Positions 764 to 32,633 of a stretch of DNA of 42,797 nucleotides are shown here, one piece after another; the first letter of the stretch is position 1, and every line of letters begins with the position of its first letter. The notes beneath the pieces are model-generated. The model had not been told where the DNA came from, ran no database searches, and saw only the letters and a list, made by a program, of their open reading frames with translations. The stretch comes from Geobacter sp. (GTDB lineage Bacteria > Desulfobacterota > Desulfuromonadia > Geobacterales > Pseudopelobacteraceae), in the NCBI GenBank assembly GCA_009886055.1, contig VFJM01000015.1:1-42797 (forward strand). The letters are read 5' to 3'. The translations under genes were made by a program, and so were the position numbers.

Positions 764-792
764 TTTCTATGATGTTTTTTATAGGATATAAT
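764..792 (+). promoter_or_regulatory. Candidate sigma70 promoter of the receiver/exonuclease/kinase operon
   Basis: Perfect TATAAT at 787-792. Weak -35 TTTCTA at 764-769 with a 17-nt spacer. It lies 33 nt upstream of the ATG at 825, and GGAGGG (811-816) serves as the SD. Confidence 0.35.
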
Positions 793-824: not shown

Positions 825-1196
825 ATGAGTAAAAAAATAATTCTTGCCGTTGATGACGAGCCGAATATTTTGATGTCCATCGAGTTTATTTTGGACATGG
901 AGGGGTATGAAGTCCACACGGCGCGGGATGGGGATGAGGCACTGGAAGTTGCCGAACGCGTTCGGCCGGATGTGATCCTGCTGGACATCAACATGCCCCG
1001 CAAAGACGGCTACGAGGTCTGCCGGATCCTTCGGGAACGGGAAAGCATGGCCGGGACAAAGGTGATCATGTTGACGGCCAAGGGGCAGGCCCTCGAAAAG
1101 AAGAAAGGGCTGGAGATGGGGGCGGACGAATATGTAACCAAGCCGTTCAGCGCCGATGAACTGCTCAATACGATTCGAACCTGTATCGAGTCATGA
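825..1196 (+). CDS. Stand-alone response regulator receiver (CheY-like, no output domain)
   Basis: 123 aa. Acidic pocket in ILAVDDEPN, phospho-acceptor context VILLDINMP, and LTAKG / KPF motifs. The stop overlaps the next start as ATGA (1193-1196). Confidence 0.9.
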   Translation: MSKKIILAVDDEPNILMSIEFILDMEGYEVHTARDGDEALEVAERVRPDVILLDINMPRKDGYEVCRILRERESMAGTKVIMLTAKGQALEKKKGLEMGADEYVTKPFSADELLNTIRTCIES

Positions 1197-3364
1197 CCGC
1201 GGTTCAGGAGGAAAAACCCCTCCGTACGGAAAAGAGTCTGCGACGCCGGATGGTAACAGCGCTCTTGTCTCTGGCGCTGCTGCCTCTGTTCGTCGCGATG
1301 GTCGGCCTGTACTTTGTGGTCAGCGACTATGTGGCCGAGATCCAGCGGCTCCAGCCGGCGTCCCAAGTGTACGAGCATTTCAACTCGATGTGCCTCCAGG
1401 TTTCCTTTTTCCTGGTCGTGTTCACCATTCTGATCGCCGCCCTGGCGTGGGAGTTGGCCAACCAGTTCCTCCGTCCTATTCTGAAGATTCGGCGGGGCGC
1501 CGAAATCGTTGCCCGCATCAACCTGAACCACCGGATTGAGCTTGATACCGGGGACGAACTGCAGGAGCTGGCCCTGGAGTTCAACCACATGGCCGAGAAC
1601 CTGGGCAAGGCGTACGACGAGCTCGAAGGGCGTGTGCGTGAAGCGACCCGGACAGTGCAGGAGGAGCGTAATCGCCTGGCTACCGTACTTCGCACCATGG
1701 TCGACGGTGTGGTCGTAGCCAATGAAGCGGCTGAGACGATCCTGATGAATCCGCGGGCACGGATCATTCTGGATCTGGGATATACGTCCGGCATCGGGAG
1801 TCCTCTGTCGCGCATCTTCCCCAGTGATCGTCTCACCTTTCATCTGAAAAGACTGCGCCAGAGATGGGATCAAGGGCGGGAGACGGTAGAGGACGTGCTC
1901 TTTCCGCTCCTGGATGGAAAACTCCTCAAAGGTTCACTTTCGATTGTACCGGGGCCGGGGGGTGAGCGATCCGGATTCCTGCTCGTGTTTCGGGATTTGA
2001 ACAGTAGCGGCGATGAGGGGAAAAATTTTGAAGAGACCCTGCGGGAAATGCCGCTGCTCCTGCGGGGGCCGCTGGCCTCATCCCGCTCGCTGGTCGAGAC
2101 GCTCCAGCGGCACCGGGAGATGCCGGAGGAAAAGCAGATGGCGTTTCTGGATGCCGTTGAGGAGGAGATGAACCGTTTGAGCGAACGGGTTACGGCAATC
2201 GATGATGCCGCCAATGCGGCCCGGAGTTCGCGCTGGCCGGCCATTCCTTCGGACCCCCGCGATCTCATGGAGGAATCACTGCTTTTGGAGCCCGGGACTA
2301 CGGTCGAGATCGAGGAGTACGACACCCCGATTCCTCCTGTGCTGGTCGAACCGTTTTCATGGGTTGCCTCTTTGCGCTGCGTCCTTCAGTGGATCACCCA
2401 GATGAACCTGGAACAGCATTCGATCAGTGCCAACCTGAAGGTTGAGGATGGCACCGTAGTTACAACCTTTCGGGTCGAAGGGCACTTCAATGGCAGCCCG
2501 ACCGGACTGGAATCCCGGGAGGTATGTCCTGCCGGCGAGCCCCCCCTTCCCCTCGGAGAGGCGGTGCGAAGAAACCGGGGTGAGTTGTGGACCAGAACTT
2601 CAGGTGAAGGCCTGGAGGTGCGGCTGGCTCTGCTGCAGGCAAGCACCGCTTCCGAAGGGGATCATCCCGATCGGCTGCTGGATGGCGAACCGGAGTTTTA
2701 CGATTTCGACCTGTTCCTGCCAAGGCCGGTTTTAGAGCGGGCCGACCAGCTCCAGGCGGATTTGAGCGATCTCGAGTACGTCGTGTTCGACACAGAGACC
2801 ACCGGGATGCGGCTCTCCCAGGGGGACAAGGTCATCAGCATCAGCGGGGTCCGCATTCGCCGGGGGCGTATTCAGAACGCCGAGATATTCCACTCCCTGG
2901 TCAACCCCGGCCGTTCAATCCCTCCCGAATCGGTACAGTTTCACCATATCGAGGACCGGATGGTGGCGGATGCACCCTCGATCAGCCAGGTTTACCCGCA
3001 ATTTGTAGAATTTGTCGGCGACTCGATTCTGGTCGCCCATAACGCAGCATTCGACAAGAAATGTCTGGAAATGGCCGCCGCCGAGGCAGGAGTGCCGATG
3101 ATCGAAAACCCGATCCTTGACACCATTTTCCTTTCGCACGGAATCCATGAGAGGACTGAAGGTCACAGCCTCGACGCCACGGCGGAACGGATGGGGATCA
3201 CCATCGAGGGGCGCCATACCTCCATGGGAGACGCCCGTGCCACTGCCCAGATCTTTCTGGGCCTCCTCTCGCTGCTGCCGGGGCGAGGGGTGCGTACCCT
3301 CGCCGAGGCAAAAGCGTTCTGCGACCGCCATCTGCTCATGCGCTGGCAGTCATCGAGATTCTGA
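1193..3364 (+). CDS. Membrane-anchored HAMP-PAS sensor with degenerate histidine-kinase core fused to a DnaQ/RNase T-like DEDDh 3'-5' exonuclease domain
   Basis: 723 aa with two N-terminal hydrophobic helices and a HAMP-like segment (LRPILKIRRGAEIVARINLNHRIELDTGDELQELALEFNHMAENL). A PAS-like segment follows. The DHp-like box PLLLRGPL has Leu where the phospho-His is expected, and the G-boxes are degenerate. The C-terminal exonuclease motifs are intact: VVFDTETTG (ExoI), LVAHNAAFD (ExoII) and HTSMGDA (ExoIII, H-x4-D). Confidence 0.85.
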   Translation: MTAVQEEKPLRTEKSLRRRMVTALLSLALLPLFVAMVGLYFVVSDYVAEIQRLQPASQVYEHFNSMCLQVSFFLVVFTILIAALAWELANQFLRPILKIRRGAEIVARINLNHRIELDTGDELQELALEFNHMAENLGKAYDELEGRVREATRTVQEERNRLATVLRTMVDGVVVANEAAETILMNPRARIILDLGYTSGIGSPLSRIFPSDRLTFHLKRLRQRWDQGRETVEDVLFPLLDGKLLKGSLSIVPGPGGERSGFLLVFRDLNSSGDEGKNFEETLREMPLLLRGPLASSRSLVETLQRHREMPEEKQMAFLDAVEEEMNRLSERVTAIDDAANAARSSRWPAIPSDPRDLMEESLLLEPGTTVEIEEYDTPIPPVLVEPFSWVASLRCVLQWITQMNLEQHSISANLKVEDGTVVTTFRVEGHFNGSPTGLESREVCPAGEPPLPLGEAVRRNRGELWTRTSGEGLEVRLALLQASTASEGDHPDRLLDGEPEFYDFDLFLPRPVLERADQLQADLSDLEYVVFDTETTGMRLSQGDKVISISGVRIRRGRIQNAEIFHSLVNPGRSIPPESVQFHHIEDRMVADAPSISQVYPQFVEFVGDSILVAHNAAFDKKCLEMAAAEAGVPMIENPILDTIFLSHGIHERTEGHSLDATAERMGITIEGRHTSMGDARATAQIFLGLLSLLPGRGVRTLAEAKAFCDRHLLMRWQSSRF

Positions 3365-3432
3365 TCAGTACGTAGAAATTGTTTCGTGAACGTAGTTATC
3401 CTGTTTATAAAGATCCGGGAGGGCATTCAGAT

Positions 3433-3624
3433 ATGAACAAGAGCTCACGCCGACTCGCCGCCCTGTTTGTCCTCGGAATAGCGGCTCTGTACCCCCCCCT
3501 GCTGGGGGCATTTAACCGGCCGGGGAGCTTCCTCGGGATCCCGATTTTGCCTCTCTATCTGTTCACGGCGTGGGTTATGCTGGTAGTGATCAGCTGGATT
3601 CTGGGGAGAGGAGACGAATTGTGA
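3433..3624 (+). CDS. Small two-helix membrane protein, DUF3311-like (symporter-associated mini subunit)
   Basis: The ATG at 3433 is preceded by GGGAGGG. The 63-aa product is MNKSSRRLAALFVLGIAALYPPLLGAFNRPGSFLGIPILPLYLFTAWVMLVVISWILGRGDEL, with two hydrophobic helices. Its stop TGA (3622-3624) overlaps the GTG (3621) of the downstream SSS-kinase. Its position directly upstream of an SSS domain is typical for DUF3311. Confidence 0.6.
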   Translation: MNKSSRRLAALFVLGIAALYPPLLGAFNRPGSFLGIPILPLYLFTAWVMLVVISWILGRGDEL

Positions 3625-6600
3625 ATGAAACCTTCTGGGTTGCCATCTTCAGCATGGGGTATCTCCTGGTATTGTTCGCCATCGCCTATGCCACGGACAA
3701 GGCCAGGGAGAACGGCCGCAGCCTGGTTGACAACCCATGGGTGTACAGCGTTTCTCTCGCCGTCTATTGTACCTCATGGACATTTTACGGCAGCGTGGGG
3801 CAGGCCGCTACCACCGGCCTCGCGTTTCTGCCGATCTACCTCGGCCCCACGCTCATCTTTCTCCTCGGACCGTCCCTGCTCAAACGACTCGTCTCCTTCT
3901 GCCGGGCGGAAGGGGTCACGAGTCTGCCGGACCTGCTTGAGGTCCTGTACGGAAAGGGGTGGGTTCTCGGAGCACTGGCCACCACGGTGATGGTGATCGG
4001 AGTTACCCCGTATATCGGACTCCAGCTTAAAGCGGTAGGGCACACCTTCGACCTGCTTACCGGAAGAAGCGCAGCTTCCGGGATACTCGGCGATGCATCT
4101 TTCTGGGCGGCCCTTGCTCTGTCGATCTTCGCCGGACTTTTCGGGGCACGGAGTCTGGTCGCCTCCGAACGTCACGAAGGGATGGTAGCTGCGGTGGTGT
4201 TCGAGAGCGCTGTCAAGCTGGGGGCATTTCTGGTGATCGGCCTGTATATTACCTTCGGAATAGGCGGCGGCCTGTTACAGGTTTTTGAAAAGGCTCTTGC
4301 TGACCCTGACCTGGCGCGGCTGTTCCTTCTCGGAGAAGGTTCGGGGGTATCGCTGCCGACGTGGGTCACCCTGAGTATCCTCTCCGCTTCAGCCGTAATC
4401 TTTCTCCCCCGCCAATTTCATATGCTGGCCGTCGAGAATGTACAGCAGCGTCACCTCCGTACCGCATCCTGGGCATTTCCGGCCTACCTGCTCCTGATCA
4501 ATGTGCTCGTACTCCCCGTAGCACTGGTCGGGCGGCTGTATGGGGGAGATATGATCCCGGATTTCTACATGATCTCTCTCCCTTTGACGCGGGGACATAC
4601 CGGTTTGGCGTTTCTCGCGTTTCTGGGCGGTTTTTCCGCCGCGACGAGCATGGTTATCGTCGAGGCGGTCGCTCTGTCAACGATGATCCTCCATCATCCC
4701 GGGGTAGCGGTACTGGGTGGTTTTTTCCCCGGATTTCGGAATCTGGTAAACCGTGACGTTTCTGTTCACCTCCTGCACACCAAGCGGGCCGTCATATTTG
4801 GTGTAGTGCTCCTGGGCTACGCCTTCAATCGATCGATCGGCGAGTCGCACACCCTGGTCGCGACAGGATTGTTGTCCTTCTCCGCCATGATCCAGTTTGT
4901 CCCCGCAGTTCTTTTCGGCCTCTTCTGGAAAGGGAGGACCAGAAGCGGAGCCCTCGCCGGGCTTGCCGCCGGGTTCGGCCTCTGGATATACACCCTGCTT
5001 CTGCCCAGCTTCGTCGATTCGGGGTGGATGAGCGAATCGTTTCTGACACAGGGACCCTGGGGAATAGAGCTGCTGCGGCCGCGAGCCCTCTTCGGCCTGC
5101 AGGGTTTTGACACCTGGACGCACGCCATGATCTGGAGCCTGGTATTCAACATGGGGGCCTACTTCACCATCAGCTTCCTTACATCACATCCTGCAGACGG
5201 GATCCAACGGTCCGAACTGCCGGCGGCATGGGCTACCAAGGCCGAACTGGAAGGGCTTCTGACACGGTTTGTGGGTGCCCGGATGGCCCAGGATGTACTG
5301 GGGGCTCTCCCCGATCGTTCATCACCCCAGCTGCTTCTGGAAGCTACCGAGCGCTGTCTGGCCAGTGCCCTGGGAACGCCGTCGGCACACATGATCATCA
5401 ACAGCACACTTGCGTGGCCCCGTGAACATGCGGTGGAGATTCTGGACGTCTTTGGCGGTGTTTCCCAAACGCTGGTGGAGAGTCGGGATGCCCTGGAACG
5501 GCGGCTGCGCGAGTTAATGGTGCTCCATGAGGCTTCACACGCCCTTTCACGGAGCCTGGACATCGACACCCTGCTGCAGGAGGTGCTCATGCTGATCAAG
5601 CGTGAGTTCGGGTTCGAATACCTGGGGGTCCGGCTCCTGGATGAGGATGGTATTTTACGGATCCGCAGCCACGTGGGACTCAGCGAGGAATACGTTATGG
5701 AATCCGCGATGGTCCCCTCACGGGAAACCTACTTCGGCACCTGTTTCCTGGATGCCAGGCCGGTCGTGGTCGGGGACACCCGCGAGATCAACAAGCCGCT
5801 GCTCTTCTCCAAACTGGCCGGAGAAGTTCCGATCAGTGCGTTTATCCATGCACCTATGATCTACGAGGGACGGGTGATCGGGGTACTCACCGCCTATACC
5901 TATCGGGGTCCGATGCACTTCACCGACGAGTTTGTCGAGCTGTTTGCGGCGCTGGCCAACCAACTCGCCATGGCGGCGATCAATGCCCAGCTTTACGGGG
6001 AGGTTCAGGCGTACAGTCTTGCCATGGAGGAAAAAGTGGCCCGGCGTACGGCTGAACTTGAAAAGGCCAATGCCCGCCTCCTGGAACTGGACCGCCTCAA
6101 AAGCGACTTCCTCTCTACGGTCAGCCATGAGTTCCGCACCCCGCTCACCTCAATCCGCTCGTTCTCCGAAATCCTGCTGCGCTACGATGTGGACGATGCG
6201 GAGAAACGCAAGAAATTCGTCGGCATCATCCATAACGAGGCGGAGCGCCTCACCCGCATGATCAACGACCTGCTCGATCTTTCAAAGATCGAAGCCGGGC
6301 GGCTGGAGCTCTTTCCCGAACCGCTGGAACTGAAGCCGGTTTTTGCCAGGGCCATCGGCACCACGCAACCGCTCTTCGCCGAAAAGGGAATCAACGTTGT
6401 CAGCACGGTCGAGCCCTCCCTTCCTCCCGTGTATGCCGACGCGGATCACCTTCACCAGGTGCTGACGAACCTCCTCTCCAACTCCGTTAATTTTTCTCCG
6501 GAGGGGGGGACGGTACGGCTCAGCGGGATGAATAAAGAGGGCTTTGCCCTGATCAGCGTGGCGGACGAAGGGCCTGGCATCCCGCCGGACAAGCTGGAGC

Positions 6601-6797
6601 AGATCTTCGAGCGCTTTCACCAGGTAAGGGACCCACAAAAGTCCCATCCGCTCGGCACCGGACTGGGGTTGACAATCTCGCGGGAGATCGTCGATAACAT
6701 GGGCGGGAATATCTGGGTCGAAAGCGAGTTGGGAGGCGGTGCGGTGTTCTTCTTCACCTTGCCTTTGGCAGCAGAGTCACCGGCCACTGAAGCCTGA
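3621..6797 (+). CDS. Sensor histidine kinase with N-terminal sodium:solute symporter (SSS/SLC5) domain, STAC-like linker, GAF, HisKA and HATPase_c domains (CrbS/CbrA-like architecture)
   Basis: The first ~500 aa hold about 13 hydrophobic segments with SSS-like motifs (e.g. FLGGFSAATSMVIVE). A GAF-like region follows (LDIDTLLQEVLMLIKREFGFEYLGVRLLDEDG...). The H-box is STVSHEFRTPLTSI with His at 6126-6128, and N/G1/G2 boxes are present (NLLSNSVNF, DEGPGI, GTGLGLTIS). I chose the GTG start at 3621 because of the GTGA coupling and the upstream GGGGAGAGGAG. The ORF-track start at 3570 would overlap the small gene by 55 nt. Confidence 0.85.
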   Translation: MNETFWVAIFSMGYLLVLFAIAYATDKARENGRSLVDNPWVYSVSLAVYCTSWTFYGSVGQAATTGLAFLPIYLGPTLIFLLGPSLLKRLVSFCRAEGVTSLPDLLEVLYGKGWVLGALATTVMVIGVTPYIGLQLKAVGHTFDLLTGRSAASGILGDASFWAALALSIFAGLFGARSLVASERHEGMVAAVVFESAVKLGAFLVIGLYITFGIGGGLLQVFEKALADPDLARLFLLGEGSGVSLPTWVTLSILSASAVIFLPRQFHMLAVENVQQRHLRTASWAFPAYLLLINVLVLPVALVGRLYGGDMIPDFYMISLPLTRGHTGLAFLAFLGGFSAATSMVIVEAVALSTMILHHPGVAVLGGFFPGFRNLVNRDVSVHLLHTKRAVIFGVVLLGYAFNRSIGESHTLVATGLLSFSAMIQFVPAVLFGLFWKGRTRSGALAGLAAGFGLWIYTLLLPSFVDSGWMSESFLTQGPWGIELLRPRALFGLQGFDTWTHAMIWSLVFNMGAYFTISFLTSHPADGIQRSELPAAWATKAELEGLLTRFVGARMAQDVLGALPDRSSPQLLLEATERCLASALGTPSAHMIINSTLAWPREHAVEILDVFGGVSQTLVESRDALERRLRELMVLHEASHALSRSLDIDTLLQEVLMLIKREFGFEYLGVRLLDEDGILRIRSHVGLSEEYVMESAMVPSRETYFGTCFLDARPVVVGDTREINKPLLFSKLAGEVPISAFIHAPMIYEGRVIGVLTAYTYRGPMHFTDEFVELFAALANQLAMAAINAQLYGEVQAYSLAMEEKVARRTAELEKANARLLELDRLKSDFLSTVSHEFRTPLTSIRSFSEILLRYDVDDAEKRKKFVGIIHNEAERLTRMINDLLDLSKIEAGRLELFPEPLELKPVFARAIGTTQPLFAEKGINVVSTVEPSLPPVYADADHLHQVLTNLLSNSVNFSPEGGTVRLSGMNKEGFALISVADEGPGIPPDKLEQIFERFHQVRDPQKSHPLGTGLGLTISREIVDNMGGNIWVESELGGGAVFFFTLPLAAESPATEA

Positions 6798-6803
6798 CAT
6801 ACC

Positions 6804-7907
6804 ATGCCTGATCAATCCAGCCCCAGGATGGCCCATGTGAATCCGAATCTCAGGCTTGACATGCTCGGTCATGAAATAGAGTCCGCCCGCACCATCGGCG
6901 CCCTGCGGGAGATCTGCCGGGGAATGCACGATACCGTGCGCGCAACCCTCGGTTCGGGGCTGGACACAAGAGAGATCGTGCAGATGATCTCCCGTTTGAA
7001 CGGTGCCATTACCCAGCGGATGATTGCCGTCATGGAACTCGACGAGGGTATCACCCTTCCCGGAGAAGCCGCCGTCCTCGCCCTTGGCAGTGAGGGACGG
7101 GAGGAACAGACCGTGCGCACCGACCAGGACAATGCGATTGTCTATGCCGACGACATCCCGCAGGAAAAACTCGGCACTGTGGAACGCTTCGCCATCCGTT
7201 TTGTGGAGGCCCTCGAAACAATCGGCGTTCCCCGCTGCCCTGGCAACATCATGGCCAGCAATCCACTCTGGCGCGACAGTATTTCCGGGTGGAAGTGCCG
7301 CCTTAACCACTGGATCACCGCTCCGACCAAGGAGCACGTGCTGAATTTCGGCATATTCCAGGACCTGCGCCCCCTGCACGGCAACCGACAGTTGGGAATC
7401 CAGCTGCGTGATCATATTCGCAACACCGTCCATAACACCATCTTCTTTTTCCCCAACATGGCCTCCCATGCCGTGCGCTTCCCGTCACCGCTTACCCTGT
7501 TCGGGCGTATCCGTGTCGAAAGGAGCGGTCAGCACAAAGGCGAGGTCGATATCAAGAAGGCCGGCATCTTTGCAATTACCGTAGGATCCAGCCTGTTGGC
7601 GCTCGAAATCGGTCATATGGGGGGGAACACCTGGGAAAAGCTGGAACTGCTCGGCAGGACAAGATTGATCAGCCCGAGAGACCTCGAGTCCATCAGTGAG
7701 GCGTTCTCATTCCTGGTGAAACTCAGGATTCGGCAGCAACTCCGTCAGATGCAGGAGCTGCCATCCGGCGTCATACCTTCGAATTACGTCGATCCGCTCG
7801 CTTTAACTGCCAGCGAACGGGACCAATTCCGCCAGGCCCTCAAGGGGGTAAACACGTTCCTGGGGATAGTTCGCAGCCACTACAAACTTGATTTCATCTC
7901 CACGTGA
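6804..7907 (+). CDS. DUF294-family putative nucleotidyltransferase (Pol-beta fold, GlnD/GlnE-like) with DUF294_C domain; lacks the usual cNMP-binding/CBS N-terminus
   Basis: 367 aa. NTase signature LALGSEGREEQTVRTDQDNAIVY (G-S-x9-D-x-D). Downstream motifs are typical of the family (CPGNIMASNPLWR, FGIFQDLRPLHG). It starts 6 nt after the kinase stop. Confidence 0.8.
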   Translation: MPDQSSPRMAHVNPNLRLDMLGHEIESARTIGALREICRGMHDTVRATLGSGLDTREIVQMISRLNGAITQRMIAVMELDEGITLPGEAAVLALGSEGREEQTVRTDQDNAIVYADDIPQEKLGTVERFAIRFVEALETIGVPRCPGNIMASNPLWRDSISGWKCRLNHWITAPTKEHVLNFGIFQDLRPLHGNRQLGIQLRDHIRNTVHNTIFFFPNMASHAVRFPSPLTLFGRIRVERSGQHKGEVDIKKAGIFAITVGSSLLALEIGHMGGNTWEKLELLGRTRLISPRDLESISEAFSFLVKLRIRQQLRQMQELPSGVIPSNYVDPLALTASERDQFRQALKGVNTFLGIVRSHYKLDFIST

Positions 7908-7935: not shown

Positions 7936-7970
7936 AAACGCTCCTGTCAGTGTCACCTGAAGGAGCGTTT
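7936..7970. terminator. Bidirectional rho-independent terminator between the signalling operon and nfu
   Basis: Stem AAACGCTCCT (7936-7945) pairs with AGGAGCGTTT (7961-7970). It is flanked by an A-run on the left and T-rich sequence on the right, and sits between convergent genes. Confidence 0.6.
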
Positions 7971-7994: not shown

Positions 7995-8216
7995 TCAGAC
8001 CTGAACGACTTCCGTAACGCCCGGTATTTGTGCCTTCATGGCGCGTTCGATCCCCATCTTCAGGGTCATGGTGGACATCGGGCAACTGCCGCAGGCGCCT
8101 TTCAGCCGCACCTTGACGACGCCGTCCTCTGTAACTTCCACCAGCTCTACATCGCCGCCATCGGCCTGCAGACCGGGACGTACCTGTTCAAGAACCCTCA
8201 GTACTTCTTCTTTCAT
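7995..8216 (-). CDS. NifU-like (Nfu-type) Fe-S cluster scaffold/carrier domain protein
   Basis: 73 aa with ...[10 protein letters not shown]...[14 protein letters not shown]..., the CxxC motif of the NifU C-terminal domain. AAGGAG sits 8 nt upstream of the ATG. Confidence 0.85.
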
Positions 8217-9984: not shown

Positions 9985-10060
9985 AGACGATAATACTAAA
10001 CCATTCGTGAGAATGGGACGGAAAGCCTACTGGGTCTCACCGAGACAGCCGGGTCGCCGA
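9985..10060 (+). promoter_or_regulatory. GEMM-I cyclic-dinucleotide riboswitch aptamer (A20 variant, candidate 3',3'-cGAMP-selective GEMM-Ib)
   Basis: ACUAAACCAUUCGUGAGAAUGGGACGGAAAGCCUACUGGGUCUCACCGAGACAGCCGGG aligns with my remembered Vc2 consensus GGGCAAACCAUUCGAAAGAGUGGGACGCAAAGCCUCCGG... The P2 hairpin CCAUUC-GUGA-GAAUGG has a GNRA loop, the junction reads GACGGAAAGCC, and a second hairpin GUCUC-ACC-GAGAC follows. The position equivalent to G20 is A (9995). The neighbouring pair covaries, G21-C46 becoming C(9996)-G. Confidence 0.7.
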
Positions 10061-10096
10061 AATATCATGAGAGATATTCGGTCCCCGGTTTTTTTG
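10049..10096 (+). terminator. Rho-independent terminator, expression platform of the riboswitch
   Basis: CCGGG-UCG-CCGAAAUAUC-AUGAGA-GAUAUUCGG-UC-CCCGG is followed by U7 (10089-10095). Its 5' arm overlaps the 3' end of the aptamer, so aptamer closure and terminator formation should be mutually exclusive. Confidence 0.6.
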
Positions 10097-10149
10097 TGCC
10101 GCAACGCCCCCGGGTGCTGAAAGTGGCACATGCTAAAAAAGGAGAACAC

Positions 10150-10635
10150 ATGAGAAGATTCGTTAGAAGTACATTCATCACCTTTACCGCACTGACCTTT
10201 ATGGTTGCTGGACTGATGCTGGCCGGTTGCGGCTCCGGAGGAGGGTCGTCTCAGGACGCCTCTGTTGGAACCCCGCTGGCCGGACAGGCGAGCCTTGCCG
10301 GGCAGGCGTCTCCCGATCCGAACAGTGCCGGTGTAAGCCCGGCTCCGGCCACAGCTACAACCACAACCACAGCTACAGCTACAACCAGTGCGCCCGTCTC
10401 CAAGCAGCTGACCCTGGCCTGGGACCAGGCTGCCGGCGCCACCTCCTATAATCTGTACTGGTCAACCGTTCCGGGGGTCACCCCCACCAACGGGACAAAG
10501 ATCAGCAGTGTCAGCTCCCCTTATGTTCATACCGGCCTGGCCGCCGGCACCAGCTATTATTACGTCGTCACGGCCGTCGACAGCACCAGCGAAAGTATTG
10601 CCTCTGCCCCGGCCTCGGGGGCCACGCCATTGTGA
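10150..10635 (+). CDS. Secreted lipoprotein with Ala/Thr-rich linker and fibronectin type III-like domain
   Basis: ATG at 10150 after AAAGGAGAA. Signal peptide plus lipobox in MRRFVRSTFITFTALTFMVAGLMLAGC. The C-terminal sequence LTLAWDQAAGATSYNLYWSTVPGVTPTNGTKISSVSSPYVHTGLAAGTSYYYVVTAVD is FnIII-like. Confidence 0.75.
   Translation: MRRFVRSTFITFTALTFMVAGLMLAGCGSGGGSSQDASVGTPLAGQASLAGQASPDPNSAGVSPAPATATTTTTATATTSAPVSKQLTLAWDQAAGATSYNLYWSTVPGVTPTNGTKISSVSSPYVHTGLAAGTSYYYVVTAVDSTSESIASAPASGATPL
10351..10386 (+). repeat. Imperfect hexanucleotide tandem repeat (ACAGCT/ACAACC x6) encoding a TATTTTTATATT linker
   Basis: Read directly as acagct acaacc acaacc acagct acagct acaacc, inside the lipoprotein CDS. 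Confidence 0.8.
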
Positions 10636-10982: not shown

Positions 10983-12482
10983 ATGGCCTCTCCCCTGCGC
11001 ATCGCCAAGACCGATCAGACCGAGTTGTTCATTCTTCCATCCATGGCCAACCGGCACGGATTGATCACCGGAGCCACCGGCACCGGGAAAACCGTCACCC
11101 TTCAGACACTGGCGGAACAGTTTTCCGCCATCGGGGTACCCTGTTTCATGTCCGACGTCAAGGGAGACCTGACAGGAATTTCCCAGATTGGCGGCGACAA
11201 CGGAAAAGTAACTGAGCGTCTGGAAAAACTCGGGATTTCAGACCATCAGTTCCGTGCATATCCGGTAACACTCTGGGACCCGTTCGGTGAAACCGGACAT
11301 CCGGTGCGTGCTACCGTATCCGACATGGGCCCTCTGCTGCTGGCGCGGATTCTGGAGTTGAACGAGACCCAGAGCGGCGTTCTTAACCTGCTGTTCAAGG
11401 TCGCTGATGACAACGGCCTGCTCCTGCTGGATTTGAAGGATCTGCGGGGTATGCTGCAATTTATCGGCGACAATTCAAAAAGATTCACCACTGAATACGG
11501 CAACATCTCCTCCGCCAGCGTTGGCGCTATCCAGCGCGGGCTGCTGGCATTTGAAAGCCAGGGTGGGGACAGAATCTTCGGTGAGCCGATGCTGAATATT
11601 GATGATTTGATGCAGACCGAACGGGGCTGCGGCGTCATTAACATCTTGTCTGCCGACAAACTCATGAAGGCCCCAAAATTATACGCCACTCTTCTGTTAT
11701 GGCTGCTCTCCGAGCTGTTCGAAAATCTGCCGGAAGCGGGAGATCTGGAAAAGCCGAAACTGGTCTTTTTCTTCGACGAGGCCCATCTCCTTTTCACCGA
11801 CGCTCCTGCGGCGCTGCTGGAAAAGATCGAACAGATGGTACGTTTGATCCGCTCCAAGGGGGTCGGAGTCTTTTTCATAACCCAGAACCCGGCCGATGTA
11901 CCTGACAAAGTGCTTTCGCAGCTGGGCAACCGGCTGCAGCATGCCCTGCGCGCCTTTTCGCCGCGCGATCAGAAGGCGGTCAGGGCCGCAGCCGAGACCA
12001 TGCGCGACAACAGCGCCCTGGACGAAGAAAAGGCCATCACCGAACTGGGCGTAGGAGAAGCGCTGGTCTCCTGTCTGGACGAACATGGACAGCCCGGAAT
12101 CGTCGAGCGCGCCTTTATCATACCGCCACATTCCCATATAGGCCCGATCAACGCCGACCAGCGGCAGCAGCTGATCCAGTCATCTCTGGTAGCCGGGGTG
12201 TATGAAAAGATGGTTGATCGGGAGTCGGCATACGAGATTCTCAAGGCGCGCGCTGAACAGGCCGCCGCACAGGAGCAGCCTGAGTCAGGCGCCCCCTCAT
12301 CAGGAACGACGCTTGGAGGGATGCTGGAAGATATGCTCGGAGGGAGCTCCGGCTCGGCGGGAAGACGGCGGGAAGGGATCGTAGAGGCCATGGCCAAGAG
12401 TGCCGCCCGTTCCGTGGGGAGTCAGGTAGGGCGGGCCATTATGCGTGGTGTGCTTGGCTCGATTCTTGGCGGAAGACGCTGA
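10983..12482 (+). CDS. DUF853 family P-loop NTPase (YjgR-like, HerA/FtsK-like ATPase)
   Basis: 499 aa. The N-terminus resembles E. coli YjgR as I remember it: [27 protein letters not shown] (Walker A) and [13 protein letters not shown] (Walker B). The C-terminal tail is Gly/Ser-rich. Confidence 0.8.
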
Positions 12483-17758: not shown

Positions 17759-18289
17759 TCAGGCCGTACACACAACCCCCAACCGTGAGGCGGCTTCCCG
17801 GTAGACCTGCTGAGCTCCGGCACTGAACTGGACGAAGATGATCCGCTCCAGTTCCGGATACTGCCTGGCAGCGCTCTTAGCCGCCGAAAGGGCGATAACC
17901 GCCGCCTCGTGCATCGGATAGCCGTAGACCCCGGCGCTGATGGCGGGAAAGGCGATGCTTCTCAATCCGTGCTGATGCGCCACCTCGAAACAGCGACGAT
18001 AGGCTGATTCCAGCAGCGCAGGCTCCCCCTTTCCTCCGCCGTTCCAGACCGGTCCGACGGTGTGGATGACATGCTTTGCCGGAAGCCGGTAGCCGCCGCT
18101 GATTTTGGCGTCTCCGGTCTCGCACGCTCCCAGCCCGGCGCACTCCTGCAGCAACTCCGGTCCGGCGCCCCGGTGGATGGCGCCATCAACGCCCCCTCCC
18201 CCCAGCAGGGTCTTGTTGGCGGCATTAACGATGGCATCCACCGCCAGTGTGGTGATATCTCCCTGAATGATTTCGATGGTTGCCGACAT
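17759..18289 (-). CDS. Macro domain protein (O-acetyl-ADP-ribose deacetylase, YmdB-like)
   Basis: [42 protein letters not shown] and [13 protein letters not shown] are canonical macro-domain motifs. Confidence 0.9.
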
Positions 18290-20258: not shown

Positions 20259-22172
20259 TCACCGTCTGCGCAGGAAGCGTTTATCCCCTGCTCTCACCGT
20301 TATTTTAAGTGAATCAAAATATTCAAGAACCGGAATCATGAATTTTCGGGAGAGTCCCGTTATTTCCCTGAATTCTGCCGGGGTTATCTCCCCCCTGGCT
20401 CGGAGATATTCGACCATGGTCTCCGATATCACCTGCAACGGGGCGGGTGCGTAGAACAGGTCATTCTTTACCTTGACGGCACGCCCCTGCCGGACAAGAA
20501 GGCTCAGGTGTTCAATAACGGTTTTCTCCGGAAGCACGAGCATATCGCACAATTCCTTCACCGTCGGAGGTTCGGCCCCGCTGCCCATCAGCATCTCCTC
20601 CAGTTGCTGCTGAATATCGACATTGCTCTGAGCAACGCCACCTGTTCTTCCCGGCAGCCTGACCTGGTCCCGGTCCGCCACAACTCTCTTTTCGTTTTCA
20701 AGGTACTGCAGGCATTGGCCGAAGAATCGCGCGTCACTCCGGGCCGGAATCCTGGTTTTCAACTCCTCCCTGCTGATGCCGTCCTTTATGGGGTTATTGA
20801 CCAGATATGTTTCAATTCTGCCCAGCAGAATGTCACAGAGATTGTGGAAGCTGTCACGCCCCAGGAAAATACGCGGATCGCGAACCATCTGGATCACCCT
20901 TCCCGACGAGAGGGGGAGGGAAAGTGCCGCATCCAGGCGTTTTGCCGATAATCCGCTGCGCAGGAGAAGATCCTGGAAGGAAATCCCCGAGAGCAGCGAC
21001 GCAGCGACAAGACGCTCTGTCATTTCCGGTTCATCGCCAAGGGACATAGACTCCAGGATGGCGAGCGCCTCAGCCGACCGCCGACGTCTCCGTGGCGGAG
21101 ACGGGTCCAGAATAGTTCCCCCGCCGACCGTTTGTGAGGGGGAATAGCTGCGCAGCACGAATGGGTCACCGTTTAACAGCAGAACCGGGGTTGCAAGACG
21201 CAGCTGGGCGAAGGCGCTCTCCCCCGGCTCAAGGCTCATCTTGTCCAGCAGGATAACCTGCGCCGAAACTTCGTATGTCGCCGAATGCAGACGGAGGGTT
21301 GAACGGTGCTTGAGCGGCCGCTCAGCCGACTTCAGGCAGGTAATCTCGACATCGACGGTTCTGGTCGCCCTGTAGAGCCCACGGGGGGCCACGACATCGC
21401 CGCGCTCTGCCTGATTGTTGTCAACGCCCTGAAGGTTGAGGGCGAGACGTTGTCCGGCGTAACCGACATCAGCCTTGCTGCCGTGGGCCTGGATGCCCCG
21501 TATTTTCGTGCATATTCCTGACGGCAACAGCTCGACTTCATCGCCAACCCTGATCTGGCCGGACAAGAGGGTGCCGGTGACAACCGTGCCGAATCCGGCA
21601 ACCGTGAACGCCCGGTCAACCGGAAGACGGAAGGGTCCGTCACTCCTCTTCTGATCGACCCGACCAGCCATCTTCCGCAGCTCTTCCTTCAGCTGTTCGA
21701 CTCCCGTACCCCGGCGTGCCGAGACCGGAACTACCGGCGCCCCCTCCAGAAAACTCCCGGCGACAAAGTCCCGGACCTCCTCAGTCACCAGTCCAAGCCA
21801 CTCCGGATCAACCAGATCACACTTTGTCAGGGCGATGAGCCCCTGCTTCACCCCGAGCAGACGGCAGATATCGAGGTGTTCGCGCGTCTGCGGCATTACC
21901 CCCTCATCGGCCGCGATCACCAGCATGACCATGTCCATACCGCCAACACCGGCCACCATGGCGCGGACAAACCTCTCGTGCCCCGGGACATCAACAATGC
22001 CGAGCTGAATGTCCCCGGGCAGCAGCAGATTGGCGAATCCGAGTTCAATGGTTATGCCACGGGCCTTCTCTTCAGGAAGCCGATCCGTATCGACTCCGGT
22101 CAGCGCCTTGACCAGTGATGTTTTGCCATGGTCGATATGTCCGGCGGTACCGAGGATGAGGTTCTTTGTCAT
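20259..22172 (-). CDS. selB: Selenocysteine-specific translation elongation factor SelB
   Basis: The GTPase N-terminus reads [42 protein letters not shown] and DVPGHERF. The long C-terminal extension has winged-helix (SECIS-binding) character. The start overlaps the selA stop as ATGA. Confidence 0.95.
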
Positions 22173-23554
22173 GGAAATATGCTCATGGCATCAACGAGAG
22201 CGGGAATGTCGGCATCCTGAAGTGTGCGGAGATCAAGCAGGTACTGTCCCTTCTGAATCCTCCCCAGCACCGGTATTTTGCGCTCCCTGAAAGCCGCATC
22301 TATCCCCTGGGGGGACCACCCTTCAACGCTGATTGCCATGAGGAACGTCGGCAGATCCAGCAGCGGCAGGGAACCGCCACCAACCTGGGAGTCACCGGCA
22401 ACCACCGTGAGGCTGACCGATGCAGGTATTTTGGCCCGAAGCCGGCGAATCCAGGCCGCAGCTTTTGCTTTCAGCGCCGCCGGTTGCAGCGTCAACATGC
22501 GCAACGTGGGTATCTCAGCCACCGCCTCTCTTTCATCCCGGTACAATCTCAAGGTCGCTTCAAGCGCTGCAAGTGTCAGCTTGTCAATCCTGACGGCTCT
22601 TAAGAGCTGCTCTTTTCTCAGTTTGGCAACAAAACTCCGCTTTCCGAGGATGATGCCGGCCTGCGGCCCGCCGAGCATCTTGTCACCACTGCAGGTTACG
22701 ATATCAACGCCCGCCTTCAGATACTCCTGCACCGGAGTCTCGCCGGTTATGCCGTACCGGGAGAGGTCAAGCAGGGAGCCGCTGCCGATATCGGCCATGA
22801 CCGGAATATCCGCCTCCCTGCCGCACCGGACGAGTTGATCAATGGAGACCTCTGCCGTAAACCCGACTACCGAAAAATTGCTGGTATGAACCTTGAGAAG
22901 CAGGGCCGTTTCCGGAGAAATGGCGGTTTGATAATCCTTCAGATGGGTGCGGTTTGTGGTTCCGACCTCCTTCAATATGCCGCCACTCAACCTCATGACG
23001 TCTGGAATTCTGAACGACCCGCCAATCTCGACAAGTTCACCCCGTGAAACCACAACCTCTTTGCCCGCCGCTATCCCTGAAAGGGCCAGCAGGACCGCCG
23101 CGGCATTATTGTTGACGACAAGCGCCGCTTCAGCCCCTGTCAGTTCGCAGAGGAGCGACTCAACGTGAACATAGCGCTCTCCGCGTTCACCTGTCGCCAT
23201 GTCCATCTCCAGGTTCGAGTACCTCTCCGCAACCTCCAGCATCTGCCGGCATGCGGATTTTGCAAGGAGTGAACGCCCAAGGTTGGTATGAACCACGACG
23301 CCGGTACCGTTTACAACAGGGTGAAGAGCGGGAGCAACGATCTGTTCCAGCTCTGTCACGATCAACCCGCAGAGTTGGCTCTCGTCAAGCGCTGCCGCCA
23401 GCTTGCCGTCTACCGAATCAACCCTGAGTGCTGCCAGAACATTCCGTACCGCCGCAAGCACCGTCGGCCGGGGATGCGTTTCAAGGAGTGAAATCAGGGG
23501 TGGAAGAGACAACACTTTATCAACCCCGGGAATTGAACAGATGACTTTCTTCAT
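22169..23554 (-). CDS. selA: L-seryl-tRNA(Sec) selenium transferase SelA
   Basis: The N-terminus is [16 protein letters not shown]. The PLP-lysine context is [14 protein letters not shown]. Start at the ATG (complement of 23552-23554), 7 nt after GGAG. The track start at 23572 is an upstream GTG. Confidence 0.95.
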
Positions 23555-23731
23555 AATGAACTCCAGAAACACCGCTATTTAAAAAGACTGTTTATCAATT
23601 GCATTCACACATCTTGAGTGTGCTAACTTCACGGATATATCAGTTCAATGAAGACATGGCAAGAAACTGCATCAGATTACATGCATGAGCAGCAGCGAAA
23701 CCGATATAAAAAATGCTGGTATGAATAAGAC

Positions 23732-23831: not shown

Positions 23832-23929
23832 GGAAGTACGTCAGTCGCTGGCGGGCTGCCCGGTCTTCAAAACCGGTGGGGTGGATGAGAAATTCGCTCG
23901 GTGGGTTCGATTCCCATGTACTTCCGCCA
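23832..23929 (+). tRNA. selC: tRNA-Sec (anticodon UCA)
   Basis: An 8-bp acceptor stem GGAAGUAC/GUACUUCC, discriminator G and encoded CCA. The anticodon loop CUUCAAA has UCA at 23867-23869. A long variable arm and a 5-bp T stem GUGGG/CCCAU with loop UUCGAUU give the 8/5 architecture typical of bacterial tRNA-Sec. Confidence 0.9.
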
Positions 23930-23995: not shown

Positions 23996-25981
23996 TCAAC
24001 GATTGAGCGGAAATGATACCGTGAAGGTAGCCCCTTTCTCTTCTTCGCTCCAGACCGTGATGCTCCCTCCATGGTCCTTGACGATGCCGTACGACACCGA
24101 GAGGCCCAACCCGGTGCCGGTTGCCTTGGTTGTGAAAAACGGGTTGAATATCTGTTGCAGGTTGTCCGGTGCAATGCCGATCCCGGTATCACCCACCGTA
24201 ACAACACACACTTCCGCCGGGATATCCTCTTCGGTAGTCACCGTCAGTGTCCCTCCATCGGGCATGGCCTGCACGGCGTTCAGGATCAGGTTGGTGAACA
24301 CCTGGCGCAACTGGCCGTCATCCCCGTTAACCTGTGCAAGTTCCGGCGCGAACTCCTTGCGGACCATGATGCCGGTAAGCGGCACCTGATGTCCAACCTG
24401 GCCGAGTATCTCATCAAGCAGCCGGTTGATGTTCGTTTTCTCCAGATATCTGCGCTCCCGGCGGGCGAACTGGAGAAGGCTGGCAACGATCCGCTCCACC
24501 CTCCCTACCTGTTGAGCAATAATGTCCGCTTCCTCGCGACAGGGATTCGCCGCTGGAATTGCCATCTGCAACAGCTCGGCGTTGCCACGGATGATTGCCA
24601 TGGGATTGTTGATCTCGTGGGCCACGCCGGCGGCCAGTTCGCCGACCGCCGCAAGCTTTTCGGCACGTACCAGATCTTCCTTGGCCTTGATCAGGAGCTG
24701 ATTCTTCTCCTCCAGTTCCGCAGTCCGCTCACTGACCTTCCGCTCCAGTTCGCTGTTAAGCTCCCTGATTTCTGCTTCCCGCTGGTTCAGCTTACCGGTC
24801 ATAATGTTGAATTCACCGGCAAGATCGCCGATTTCATCGCTGGTCGTGACTGCGATCTGAACGTCTTTCTCACCGGCTGAGAACCGCTTGACGAGGTTCT
24901 GCAGCTCGCGAATCGGTCGTGAAAGACGTGAGCCGATGAACCCTGAAACGGCCAATCCGACCAGCGAGCCTAACAGGAGCACGCCGCAGAAAATAAGGGT
25001 TACTTTCTGTTTGATAGCGGTATACGGCTTTCCCAGCATCCCCACGTAGAGTGAACCGACCACTTTTCCGTCCAGGTCAAGGATCGGTTCATAGGCCGAG
25101 AAATACCAGTCCTTGACGACAAAGGCAGGATCGATCCATTTCTTTTGGTTGACAATGACATGATTGTAAACCTCTTCGGAAAGTCTGGTGCCTATTGCTC
25201 TCCCCCCGCCCTTGGTCTGGACGTTGGTGTTTATCCGGAGGTCGTCAAGAAACATGGTGGCCGTGCCGGCATCCTCTCCCTGGAACTGCACCCCCTCGTA
25301 GACGATCGTTTTGATCTTGTCCACCAGGTTGTTGTTGCCGTTAAGCAGGACTCCGCCGTACAGGGCGCCGACTATCCGTCCCGCCTCATCCCTGACCGGA
25401 GCGGAGGAAACCAGCAGCATGCCGGAGCGTCCGACCTGCTTGTTGCTCGGCCTTGCCCGCGGGGTCTCTAATATCTCTATGGTTGCCTGGCGAGCCAGAT
25501 CAGGCCCTTCCATAAGAAGGTCTTCAGGGGAAAAGATTGCGGTCCCCGCAACCGCCTCGCCTCTGAGGGCACGTGACACAAGCCGGTCCCCGGCGCGGCT
25601 GTCGCCGAAAACCTCCGGGTTTCTTGCCCGGAAGAGGACACGCCCGTCACTGCTGACGGCTGTAAGCATGTCCAGGCGTTCGCTGCTGCGAAGCGGTGAG
25701 AGAAGGGATGAGAGCCTGGCGTGTCTGCCGTTTGCAAACACCGTGGCGGTAAAGGGAGCGTTGGCCGTGAGACTAACCACATCACGGATATGGGCAACTT
25801 CGGAAAGATAAATCTCCCGGGCCGAATTGAGGTCGGTCCTGACCTTTTCCTGCGCCTGGCGGACAACAGAGGAATTGATGGTGTAAATACCGGCCAGCGA
25901 GCAGATCATGATGGCGACAAATAGCGGCAACAACGCGCCGATTGTCAGTTTGACCCGTATGGAGAAACGCTTTAGAGGCAT
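23996..25981 (-). CDS. Sensor histidine kinase: large periplasmic (Cache-like?) domain, HAMP, HisKA, HATPase_c
   Basis: Two TM helices flank a ~290-aa extracytoplasmic region. The HAMP segment is RPIRELQNLVKRFSAGEKD...IGDLAGEFNIM. The H-box is AGVAHEINNPMAII, and the N/G boxes are NLILNAVQAM, DTGIGI and GTGLGLSVS. Confidence 0.85.
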   Translation of the reverse strand: MPLKRFSIRVKLTIGALLPLFVAIMICSLAGIYTINSSVVRQAQEKVRTDLNSAREIYLSEVAHIRDVVSLTANAPFTATVFANGRHARLSSLLSPLRSSERLDMLTAVSSDGRVLFRARNPEVFGDSRAGDRLVSRALRGEAVAGTAIFSPEDLLMEGPDLARQATIEILETPRARPSNKQVGRSGMLLVSSAPVRDEAGRIVGALYGGVLLNGNNNLVDKIKTIVYEGVQFQGEDAGTATMFLDDLRINTNVQTKGGGRAIGTRLSEEVYNHVIVNQKKWIDPAFVVKDWYFSAYEPILDLDGKVVGSLYVGMLGKPYTAIKQKVTLIFCGVLLLGSLVGLAVSGFIGSRLSRPIRELQNLVKRFSAGEKDVQIAVTTSDEIGDLAGEFNIMTGKLNQREAEIRELNSELERKVSERTAELEEKNQLLIKAKEDLVRAEKLAAVGELAAGVAHEINNPMAIIRGNAELLQMAIPAANPCREEADIIAQQVGRVERIVASLLQFARRERRYLEKTNINRLLDEILGQVGHQVPLTGIMVRKEFAPELAQVNGDDGQLRQVFTNLILNAVQAMPDGGTLTVTTEEDIPAEVCVVTVGDTGIGIAPDNLQQIFNPFFTTKATGTGLGLSVSYGIVKDHGGSITVWSEEEKGATFTVSFPLNR

Positions 25982-26004
25982 GATCCTTCTCTTTTGACTT
26001 GGTA

Positions 26005-27581: not shown

Positions 27582-27690
27582 TATGAAGTGAACCTGCAAC
27601 CGATCATATCGGAATCTTTGGAATAATTAAACACAAATATGAATACACCGTTTGCAGAAATTCTGTTGTTAGCAAGTTATTAAACGTATC

Positions 27691-27775: not shown

Positions 27776-27983
27776 AGTGAGTTAGATGTTATTTTCTGCT
27801 TTGTTTAGTACGGTAGAAATTATTTATGCGGTTTTTTGCAGAAATGATTTTGTTAGCGTACTTATCCAATTTATTGGGACCGGCAGAAATCACTTCGTGA
27901 ACGAACTATCCTGTCTATGCGGGATGAAAAGGAGATGGTTGGCATCGGTAACGATTACAACCATTTTAAAAGGAGGTACAGCA

Positions 27984-32565: not shown

Positions 32566-32589
32566 CGAAAAAAAATCAACATAATCTGC

Positions 32590-32612: not shown

Positions 32613-32633
32613 GACGCAGACCAGGGAGCATTG

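Follow-up and report, generated by a model that had tools for sequence, protein, structure and literature searches.

A Geobacter operon that joins a CbrA/CrbS-type SLC5 sensor kinase to a DUF294 nucleotidyltransferase and a sensor-exonuclease fusion, with a seemingly enzymatic output

We describe a five-gene signalling operon that occupies positions 825-7907 of a 42,797-nucleotide stretch of Geobacter sp. DNA (assembly GCA_009886055.1, contig VFJM01000015.1), referred to throughout as the window. The operon encodes a receiver-only protein, a membrane-anchored fusion of sensor domains and a dead histidine kinase core with an apparently active DEDDh exonuclease, a small membrane peptide, an SLC5-type sensor histidine kinase and a stand-alone DUF294 nucleotidyltransferase. 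We do not see in it a new kind of system but place it with the CbrA/CrbS transceptor systems and with the known but unexplained DUF294-exonuclease pair; it appears to be an undescribed, widespread variant with a seemingly enzymatic output. Our confidence is high for the anatomy and for the conserved linkage across phyla, which extends to acs, glyoxylate-shunt and acetate-type SSF transporter genes; it is moderate for the route from receiver to pseudo-kinase and low for any specific chemistry. We regard as evenly balanced between right and wrong the overall proposal that the operon is a post-translational variant of a CbrA/CrbS-type transceptor, in which the signal passes from kinase to receiver to pseudo-kinase to exonuclease and the DUF294 transferase acts as the counterpart.

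Layout of the operon

The five genes are co-directional on the plus strand and tightly packed, as judged from a list of open reading frames (ORFs) and from the sequence. They encode the receiver (825-1196), the sensor-exonuclease fusion (1193-3364), the peptide (3433-3624), the SLC5 kinase (3621-6797, with a GTG start) and the DUF294 transferase (6804-7907). Genes 1 and 2 share an ATGA at 1193-1196, genes 3 and 4 share a GTGA at 3621-3624, and 6 nt (6798-6803) separate genes 4 and 5, all as described in an earlier, model-made reading of the bare sequence (hereafter the sequence-only reading); a 68-nt gap between genes 2 and 3 (3365-3432) was absent from it. The receiver gene has a GGAGGG ribosome-binding site 9 nt ahead of its ATG at 825, and the ATG of the peptide gene lies nine bases past a GGGAGGG site. 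This spacing suggests a single transcript for the five genes.

The same reading had placed the operon between a TATAAT promoter candidate and a hairpin terminator, and the second of these boundaries is the firmer. The hairpin at 7936-7970, to which no strand is assigned, has a stem of 14 pairs and a predicted RNA folding energy of -19.2 kcal/mol (z=-4.25). An A8 run precedes it and a weaker T-rich run follows it, so that it can serve as terminator for the convergent nifU-like gene (7995-8216, minus strand) as well, and it fits a bidirectional terminator common to that gene and the operon. The TATAAT hexamer, which resembles a -10 element, is present at 787-792 (plus strand), but it stays a candidate: a consensus promoter scan upstream of the receiver gene made no call, the -35 element is poor and a strong sigma-70 site is unsupported.

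A receiver without output domain and a dead kinase core joined to an exonuclease

The first gene encodes a 123-aa receiver (Pfam Response_reg, 2.5e-32 over residues 6-118) in which DD11-12, D55, T83 and K105, read from the sequence, make up the full D/D/D/T/K set. It has no output domain and is the only regulator in the operon, as the sequence-only reading had pointed out.

The product of gene 2 (723 aa) combines two hydrophobic transmembrane helices, HAMP and PAS domains, a degenerate kinase core with regions resembling the dimerization and histidine phosphotransfer (DHp) and catalytic and ATP-binding (CA) domains, and a DEDDh exonuclease, an order that the sequence-only reading had recognized and that Pfam bears out (HAMP 3.7e-10, PAS 2e-4, RNase_T 3.1e-34; HisKA sub-threshold at 3.7e-3). 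The helices (residues 25-43 and 66-84) are only about 20 residues apart. The degenerate core (2015-2647; DHp-like at about residues 275-345, CA-like at about 350-485) is marked by the sub-threshold HisKA match and by Foldseek. Its H-box reads PLLLRGPL, with leucine at the position of the phosphorylated histidine, and an alignment of 14 relatives from four or more phyla has histidine at this position in none of them. The replacement is leucine in the Desulfuromonadales clade and glutamate in a cross-phylum clade (LTEGxR...), an acidic residue that could conceivably mimic the phosphorylated state. Likewise, the fusion has no HATPase_c match in Pfam, and the N, G1 and G2 boxes are absent from the alignments of its relatives.

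The fold of a kinase core appears to be retained in the models despite the lost boxes. AlphaFold modelling of the full fusion used a shallow alignment of 14 sequences, and we draw from it only on the CA-like segment (residues 350-485, modelled by AlphaFold2 (AF2) with a predicted local distance difference test score, pLDDT, of about 80) and on the overall kinase-like Foldseek matches, the best of which in the PDB are the DHp-CA cores of WalK, HK853, YycG and CpxA.

The exonuclease domain spans residues 530-688 (2780-3256) and is of the DEDDh 3'-5' type. Residues D533 and E535 (Exo I, DxE), D621 (Exo II, D), and H675 and D680 (Exo III, H-x4-D) are invariant across phyla, and the top NCBIfam matches of the domain are PRK07883, the PolC exonuclease and PRK07740. 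Gene 2 would therefore, on its residues, encode a pseudo-kinase joined to an apparently active exonuclease. NCBIfam returned only generic kinase, receiver and exonuclease models for the five proteins, with nothing for DUF294 or the peptide, and a literature search found no paper on the fusion family or on its Geobacter homologues.

In one alternative, the dead kinase module of this protein would not take in the signal but heterodimerize with the SLC5 kinase or titrate the receiver away from it, and HAMP and PAS would provide a second input to an ordinary phosphorelay with its true output regulator at another site in the genome. The sequences of DHp helix 1 in the fusion (GPLASSRSLVETL) and in the true kinase of the operon (TPLTSIRSFSEIL) do resemble each other, the fusion has its own HAMP and PAS domains, to which long forms add a periplasmic domain of about 110-190 aa, and receiver-only proteins are often phosphate sinks or shuttles. 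We nevertheless consider this alternative improbable, as it leaves unexplained both an exonuclease that is always attached and keeps its DEDDh residues invariant and, in the loci examined, the presence of NtrC-type partners only where the exonuclease is free-standing; moreover, the cluster holds no Hpt or second regulator.

A CbrA-like kinase with a coupled membrane peptide

Gene 4 encodes a 1058-aa sensor histidine kinase. Its C-terminal part is readily recognized by Pfam (GAF_2 3e-17, HisKA 6.8e-22, HATPase_c 1e-29), with a canonical H-box (SHEFRTPL) and readable N, G1, F and G2 boxes. The membrane part of about 640 residues is invisible to Pfam, which gives no SSF match to the N-terminus even at E<10, so that the SLC5 assignment of the sequence-only reading stands on other grounds: a phmmer search of the PDB matches residues 8-464 to residues 11-450 of 10ED_A (CbrA) with E=1.1e-69, and five close relatives of the kinase carry PF00474. 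Entry 10ED is the 2026 cryo-electron microscopy structure of the Pseudomonas putida CbrX-CbrA SLC5-STAC module (PMC13488458).

Aligned to CbrA, the SLC5 (LeuT-fold) transporter-like domain extends over 3642-5012. The Na2-site lysine of CbrA (K196) is conserved, as are five of eight pocket residues (Y51, W55, F71, Y75 and F406), and the other three are changed (S53 to Thr, A56 to Thr and F248 to Ser). These positions were assigned their roles in CbrA, where the pocket holds histidine and the lysine fills the Na2 site (PMC13488458). Histidine as the ligand of the window kinase is not implied, given the three altered residues.

The transporter-like domain is followed by a STAC-like helical domain (about residues 537-624; 5229-5492). 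A single-sequence PDB search with the region after the transporter returned noise and a profile was needed: profile A3 matches residues 471-593 of 10ED_A with E=7e-6. The region aligns with the SLC5 kinases of Vibrio, Neptuniibacter and Nitrospirae loci, with the common motifs RFxG and ERxLAGxxGxxSA (Vibrio). Together with the Pfam matches, these results give the kinase an SLC5-STAC-GAF-DHp-CA architecture.

The 63-aa product of gene 3 is a predicted two-helix membrane peptide (helices at residues 8-26 and 38-56) that is translationally coupled to the kinase. The GTGA overlap is kept in three related loci (L001, L002 and L004), and an ORF of 61-65 aa stands ahead of the SLC5 kinase in distant loci too. 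The sequence-only reading had called the peptide DUF3311-like, a label that we drop: Pfam gave no match, and for DUF3311 none even at E<=10. CbrX-like is probably the better name because the peptide has the same position, topology and 4-nt overlap as CbrX, with a sequence similarity that is undetectable (a single-sequence PDB search returned only noise, entry 10ED included). CbrX, in the CbrXA complex, is a two-helix hairpin that is translationally coupled to the kinase, with a 4-nt overlap of cbrX and cbrA, and binds to TM3 and TM8 of the kinase (PMC13488458).

Conservation of the cluster and of the transferase-exonuclease linkage

Relatives of the fusion fall into more than 175 clusters named mainly Desulfuromonadales or Geobacteraceae and into a second, cross-phylum clade of 267 clusters that takes in Chloroflexota, Myxococcota, Burkholderiales and Spirochaetia. 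The same five genes are found in the same order in Desulfuromonas sp. TF (L001) and in Geobacter and Desulfuromonadaceae assemblies (L002, L003, L007 and L008), and L001, L002 and L007 have a DUF4212-SSF transporter pair near the cluster. The core of the second clade runs peptide, SLC5 kinase, receiver-only protein, fusion. A Caldilinea locus (L087) places acs, DUF4212, SSF and cNMP-CBS-DUF294 genes ahead of this four-gene core and malate synthase after it, and a Burkholderiales locus (L088) has isocitrate lyase and acs, the four-gene core, two CBS-DUF294 genes, DUF485 (YjcH-type) and SSF; L006 and L032 are arranged similarly.

The position of the receiver is the most regular feature of these loci. 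In 10 of 11 fusion loci, the gene just ahead of the fusion encodes a receiver-only protein (an arrangement seen in L001-L008, L032 and L087-L088). The exception, L089, consists of DUF485, SSF, a split DUF294 and the fusion, with the kinase and receiver genes both absent. The kinase gene precedes the receiver-fusion pair in L006, L032, L087 and L088 and follows it in loci of the window type. Two Nitrospirae loci (L060 and L067) have a free exonuclease of about 220-245 aa after a cNMP/CBS-DUF294 gene, and their SLC5 kinase stands beside an NtrC-type sigma-54 activator, which matches CbrB. This cross-locus pattern of regulators supports, and does not prove, the suggestion of the sequence-only reading that the output is enzymatic rather than transcriptional.

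To place the linkage in a wider frame, one genome per species was scanned for DUF294 with a 64-sequence alignment, the 80 best loci were kept, and their six-frame ORFs were searched with seeds from the window, L001, L002 and L006. A DEDDh exonuclease is found within 43 of these 80 loci and lies directly downstream of DUF294 on the same strand in half of those with enough flank (38 of 76). An SSF transporter occurs in 37 of the 80, DUF4212 in 23 and an SLC5-type kinase in 17. Vibrio, Neptuniibacter, Pontibacterium, Nitrospirae, Campylobacterota, Aquificota, Chloroflexota, Holophagaceae and Spirochaetia are among the taxa with at least one link. In Gammaproteobacteria and Campylobacterota the free exonucleases belong to NF006601 (PRK09145; 306 bits for a Vibrio example), and some of those from Desulfobacterota are PRK07740-like. 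The linkage is not universal, since a search within 8 kb finds neither an exonuclease nor an SSF transporter nor an SLC5 kinase in 24 of the 80 loci (L019-L040 and others); this unlinked clade is drawn mainly from Rhodocyclales, Chromatiales and some Desulfuromonadales (e.g. Thauera, Azoarcus, Accumulibacter and Thiocapsa), with transferases 37-42% identical to that of the window.

The sequence-only reading had named DUF294 and DnaQ-like exonuclease genes as recurrent neighbours of actP/acs loci and of SSS-type kinases in gamma-proteobacteria and had asked for a neighbourhood analysis; this linkage agrees with the survey and with published work. In P. putida, PP_0354 (cNMP-CBS-DUF294) and PP_0353 (RNase_T) form an operon that is among the strongest targets of MxtR/ErdR (CrbS/CrbR), with only mild phenotypes, on pyruvate and propionate (PMC9927547; bioRxiv 10.64898/2026.09.07.749794). 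PA3232-PA3235 likewise belong to the MxtR/ErdR targets and are co-induced with actP (PMC9765439), and Pflu5625 is under CrbS/R control (PMC5715377).

This context bears on a further reading, that the genes form an anti-phage defence (CBASS-like) or DNA-repair module and that the name "DNA polymerase III subunit epsilon", which several sources give to relatives of the exonuclease, is meaningful. Generic PADLOC DEDDh models do match the exonuclease domain. We reject the reading as very improbable, however, because DUF294 has no PADLOC match and a GlnE/DrrA fold, not that of cGAS/DncV, and because the genes are kept across phyla beside acs, isocitrate lyase, malate synthase and SSF transporter genes. 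Furthermore, the exonuclease is membrane-anchored and fused to sensor domains, and published data on the CrbS/R regulon connect the pair with carbon metabolism (PMC9927547).

Some loci hold additional genes. In four loci (L001, L002/L003 and L007) from three Desulfuromonadales genomes, a convergent AP_endonuc_2 gene (xylose-isomerase-like TIM barrel) comes after DUF294, and L002 and L007 have a second, divergent DUF294 gene beside DUF4212-SSF; the window has neither. In L088 (11343-15119 and 17605-20145), the two CBS-DUF294 genes stand in tandem and there is a second peptide/SLC5-kinase pair.

The DUF294 transferase and its relation to protein AMPylases

Gene 5 encodes a stand-alone nucleotidyltransferase of 367 aa that matches both DUF294 (PF03445; 2.5e-40, 138.0 bits against a cut-off of 21) and DUF294_C (PF10335; 7.7e-37, 126.7 bits against a cut-off of 22.5). 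The cNMP and CBS sensor domains of the usual family architecture are absent, according to Pfam. Sensor domains (CBS, cNMP, PAS or Cache) precede DUF294 in relatives of 480-974 aa, and DUF294 thus behaves as a signalling output module. Its Pol-beta assignment in the sequence-only reading is upheld by a GS...DxD...D signature, with G95, S96, D107, D109, D187 and K251 invariant in 64 relatives. The bare transferase, free of regulatory domains, is probably the easiest member of the family to assay.

An AF2 model built with the 64 relatives (pLDDT 95.6) has only four significant Foldseek matches in the PDB, all of them to GlnE or DrrA: two chains of the GlnE adenylylation domain (3k7d; E=3e-9 and 4e-9), DrrA (6yx5; E=1.5e-8, template modelling (TM) score 0.65/0.69) and the GlnE deadenylylation domain (1v4a; E=3.6e-8). 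Aminoglycoside nucleotidyltransferases come next at E>0.02. A single-sequence PDB search with the protein gave only a spurious Mediator match. On the modelled fold, DUF294 leans towards the enzymes that add nucleotides to protein hydroxyls or remove them, and the chemistry that the sequence-only reading had left open now tilts in the direction of GlnE/DrrA-type protein nucleotidylylation.

We accordingly weighed a scheme in which DUF294 nucleotidylylates a protein hydroxyl (of an acetate transporter, Acs or a signalling protein), the DEDDh enzyme erases the modification and the two-component system sets the rate. The exonuclease would hydrolyse the Tyr/Ser-O-P bond and release the 5'-nucleoside monophosphate (5'-NMP), in analogy to its cleavage of 3'-O-P bonds. 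Such a scheme, which the authors of the Pseudomonas studies have also proposed in the form of protein nucleotidylylation (PMC5715377; bioRxiv 10.64898/2026.09.07.749794), is in our view possible, if on the unlikely side. It agrees with the sole significant structural relatives of DUF294 being protein AMPylases or de-AMPylases, with the invariance of the catalytic residues and with the presence of sensor domains on either partner, depending on lineage. However, the identity to the GlnE and DrrA structures is 12-15%, a likeness of fold that does not fix the acceptor, and the neighbourhoods hold no conserved candidate target resembling PII or glutamine synthetase (GS). Nor do we know of any DEDDh enzyme that removes a protein-bound nucleotide.

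The exonuclease favours a different chemistry, in which DUF294 tails a specific RNA 3' end (of a small RNA, a transfer RNA or an acetate-metabolism messenger RNA) or makes an oligonucleotide signal, the exonuclease trims or degrades the product and the two-component system sets RNA stability or signal lifetime. The intact DEDDh domain is nearest to nucleases of the DnaQ, PolC and RNase T type, the pairing of a nucleotidyltransferase with an exonuclease recalls the CCA-adding enzyme with RNase T, and the CbrAB output in Pseudomonas goes via small RNAs. We find this scheme doubtful, since RNA-tailing polymerases (terminal uridylyltransferase and poly(A) polymerase) match the DUF294 model only at noise level (E about 0.5-1, TM below 0.2) and an Rfam scan found no known or conserved RNA family within the operon. 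A role in messenger RNA degradation has been the subject of speculation by the P. putida authors (PMC9927547).

A receiver-DUF294 fusion was considered as a Rosetta stone for the partnership and rejected, as the 480-aa relatives have CBS and no receiver. The nearest case, from Nitrospirae (L066, 1927-4216), is a receiver-only gene that runs into the start of a CBS-DUF294 gene, a hint of a direct route from receiver to transferase.

Proposed mechanism

Under the post-translational mechanism that we propose, the SLC5-STAC-GAF kinase, probably with the CbrX-like peptide bound, would sense a solute that it transports or binds, which from the context may be acetate or a small carboxylate related to it, and autophosphorylate. 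It would then phosphorylate the receiver-only protein encoded by the first gene of the operon. The system having no DNA-binding regulator, the phosphorylated receiver would dock on the membrane-anchored fusion protein at its catalytically dead DHp/CA module, and docking would turn the attached DEDDh exonuclease on or off. The bare DUF294 transferase, of GlnE/DrrA fold, would be the constitutive counterpart of the exonuclease, the two acting on a common substrate that bears a nucleotidyl group. We infer the phosphotransfer route, the antagonism of the two enzymes and the ligand. The antagonism fits the distribution of sensors: canonical pairs carry cNMP, CBS or PAS sensors on the transferase and the window operon carries them on the exonuclease, as expected of opposing enzymes on one substrate whose ratio is regulated.

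Several observations weigh against this mechanism. Docking of the receiver on the dead DHp is something that we infer from gene adjacency and from the resemblance of the two DHp sequences, and the full-length model of the fusion is poor (pLDDT 48.5). Two deltaproteobacterial loci (L004 and L005) have the four-gene core of receiver, fusion, peptide and kinase and no adjacent DUF294, so the transferase is not obligatorily co-located. The three pocket differences from CbrA mean that the ligand cannot be named from the sequence, and the acetate link of the window operon is suggested by homology of context only, since a search of the window with DUF4212 and SSF seeds found no such transporter and Pfam scans of the neighbouring ORFs found no acs, isocitrate lyase or malate synthase. 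Finally, the two enzyme folds point apart: GlnE and DrrA modify protein hydroxyls and DEDDh enzymes cleave nucleic-acid 3' ends, which makes the common substrate only a proposal.

That substrate could be a protein-bound nucleotide, as favoured by the transferase fold, or a nucleic-acid 3' end or oligonucleotide, as favoured by the exonuclease fold. In its most specific form, the mechanism would have DUF294 and the DEDDh domain write and erase a nucleotidyl mark (protein-NMP or a very short tail) that gates the uptake or activation of acetate and short-chain carboxylates, with the eraser controlled by receiver docking on the pseudo-kinase. We offer this form tentatively and think it rather unlikely to be right in full. 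If true, it would represent a new kind of two-component output, namely the control of a nuclease through a pseudo-kinase, and the exonuclease could be the first DEDD enzyme to act as a de-nucleotidylylase.

Relation to known systems

The closest described relative is the CbrX-CbrA/CbrB system of Pseudomonas. The window kinase shares with CbrA a homologous SLC5 domain (E=1e-69) that keeps the Na2-site lysine, a canonical DHp-CA core and, at the profile level, a STAC-like domain, and each kinase gene shares 4 nt with an upstream gene for a two-helix peptide, a predicted one in the window. In contrast to CbrA, the window kinase has GAF in place of PAS and three altered pocket residues, its partner is the 123-aa receiver-only protein and not an NtrC-type CbrB, and its operon includes the exonuclease fusion and the DUF294 gene.

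The CrbS/CrbR (MxtR/ErdR) regulon of Vibrio and Pseudomonas, which comprises acs, actP-yjcH, a cNMP-CBS-DUF294 gene and a downstream RNase_T exonuclease gene, similarly has an SLC5 kinase, a DUF294 transferase and a DEDDh exonuclease that are functionally linked, and the related loci share its acetate or short-chain carboxylate context. There, however, the link is transcriptional, via the LuxR-type CrbR, whereas the window regulator has no output domain; the transferase has cNMP and CBS domains, whereas that of the window is bare; and the exonuclease, of about 200 aa, stands alone, whereas that of the window is fused to two transmembrane helices, HAMP, PAS and a dead kinase core.

Like GlnE, GlnD and DrrA/SidM, DUF294 has the GS...DxD signature together with a helical C-terminal substrate-binding domain, which belongs to the KNTase_C clan (PMC3710099). 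Unlike them, the window transferase has no GS, PII or Rab-like target nearby and no second nucleotidyltransferase or HD domain for removal of the modification, its conserved partner being the DEDDh exonuclease. The signalling half recalls pseudo-histidine kinases and CheY/DivK-type receivers, in that the DHp/CA-like module has neither a phospho-acceptor nor ATP-binding boxes and the single-domain receiver must act by binding. To our knowledge, no described case joins a pseudo-histidine-kinase module to a nuclease domain.

The DUF294 transferase and exonuclease genes are among the most strongly CrbS/CrbR-dependent genes of Pseudomonas and adjoin CrbS-like SLC5 kinase genes in Vibrio loci. The operon and its relatives put both enzymes, the SLC5 kinase and the receiver into one co-inherited unit and shift sensing from the transferase onto the exonuclease. 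They thereby yield three testable claims: that the two enzymes oppose each other on one substrate, that control is post-translational through the receiver and the dead kinase, and that the transferase has a protein-AMPylase fold. If confirmed, these would add a new output class to two-component signalling and account for a gene pair whose links to exonuclease or acetate-type transporter genes span at least eight phyla.

Other features of the window

To the left of the operon and divergent from it, an AAA-type ATPase gene (2 to about 500, minus strand; start MITRTLTPVLEQLAGQYPVVTLTGPRQSGKTT) runs past the edge of the window, and the operon is therefore without the DUF4212-SSF neighbours of L001, L002 and L007. 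On the right, a c-di-GMP-I riboswitch (Rfam; 9985-10061, plus strand) scores 45.9 bits, with a gathering score of 35, and is closely followed by a 179-aa ORF (10096-10635) that has a weak fibronectin type III match. A HerA-like C-terminal helicase/ATPase gene (PF05872, 754 bits; 10983-12482, plus strand) and a gene for a stand-alone macro-domain protein (17759-18289, minus strand) follow, with an ABC-F gene and an HlyD/ABC-2 export set between them; no link of these genes to the operon is seen.

The window holds a second, ordinary two-component pair (23996-27402, minus strand), a dCache/sCache-HAMP histidine kinase and an NtrC-type sigma-54 regulator (26005-27402) that is the partner of this Cache kinase and is not adjacent to the five-gene operon. 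The pair is divergent from a formate dehydrogenase operon that is headed by a Moco (molybdenum/tungsten cofactor) riboswitch (27683-27804, plus strand) ahead of the catalytic subunit. This subunit is represented by two ORFs (27786-28586 and 28635-31160) in the same reading frame, broken by a TGA at 28584-28586 (context ...ARI-TGA-HSAT...), and the two are thus probably one selenocysteine-containing gene. It is followed by an FdnH-like gene (31164-31955) and an FdhE-like gene (32508-33464), and selB (20259-22172, minus strand), selA (22169-23572, minus strand) and tRNA-Sec (23832-23925, plus strand) adjoin the formate dehydrogenase locus.

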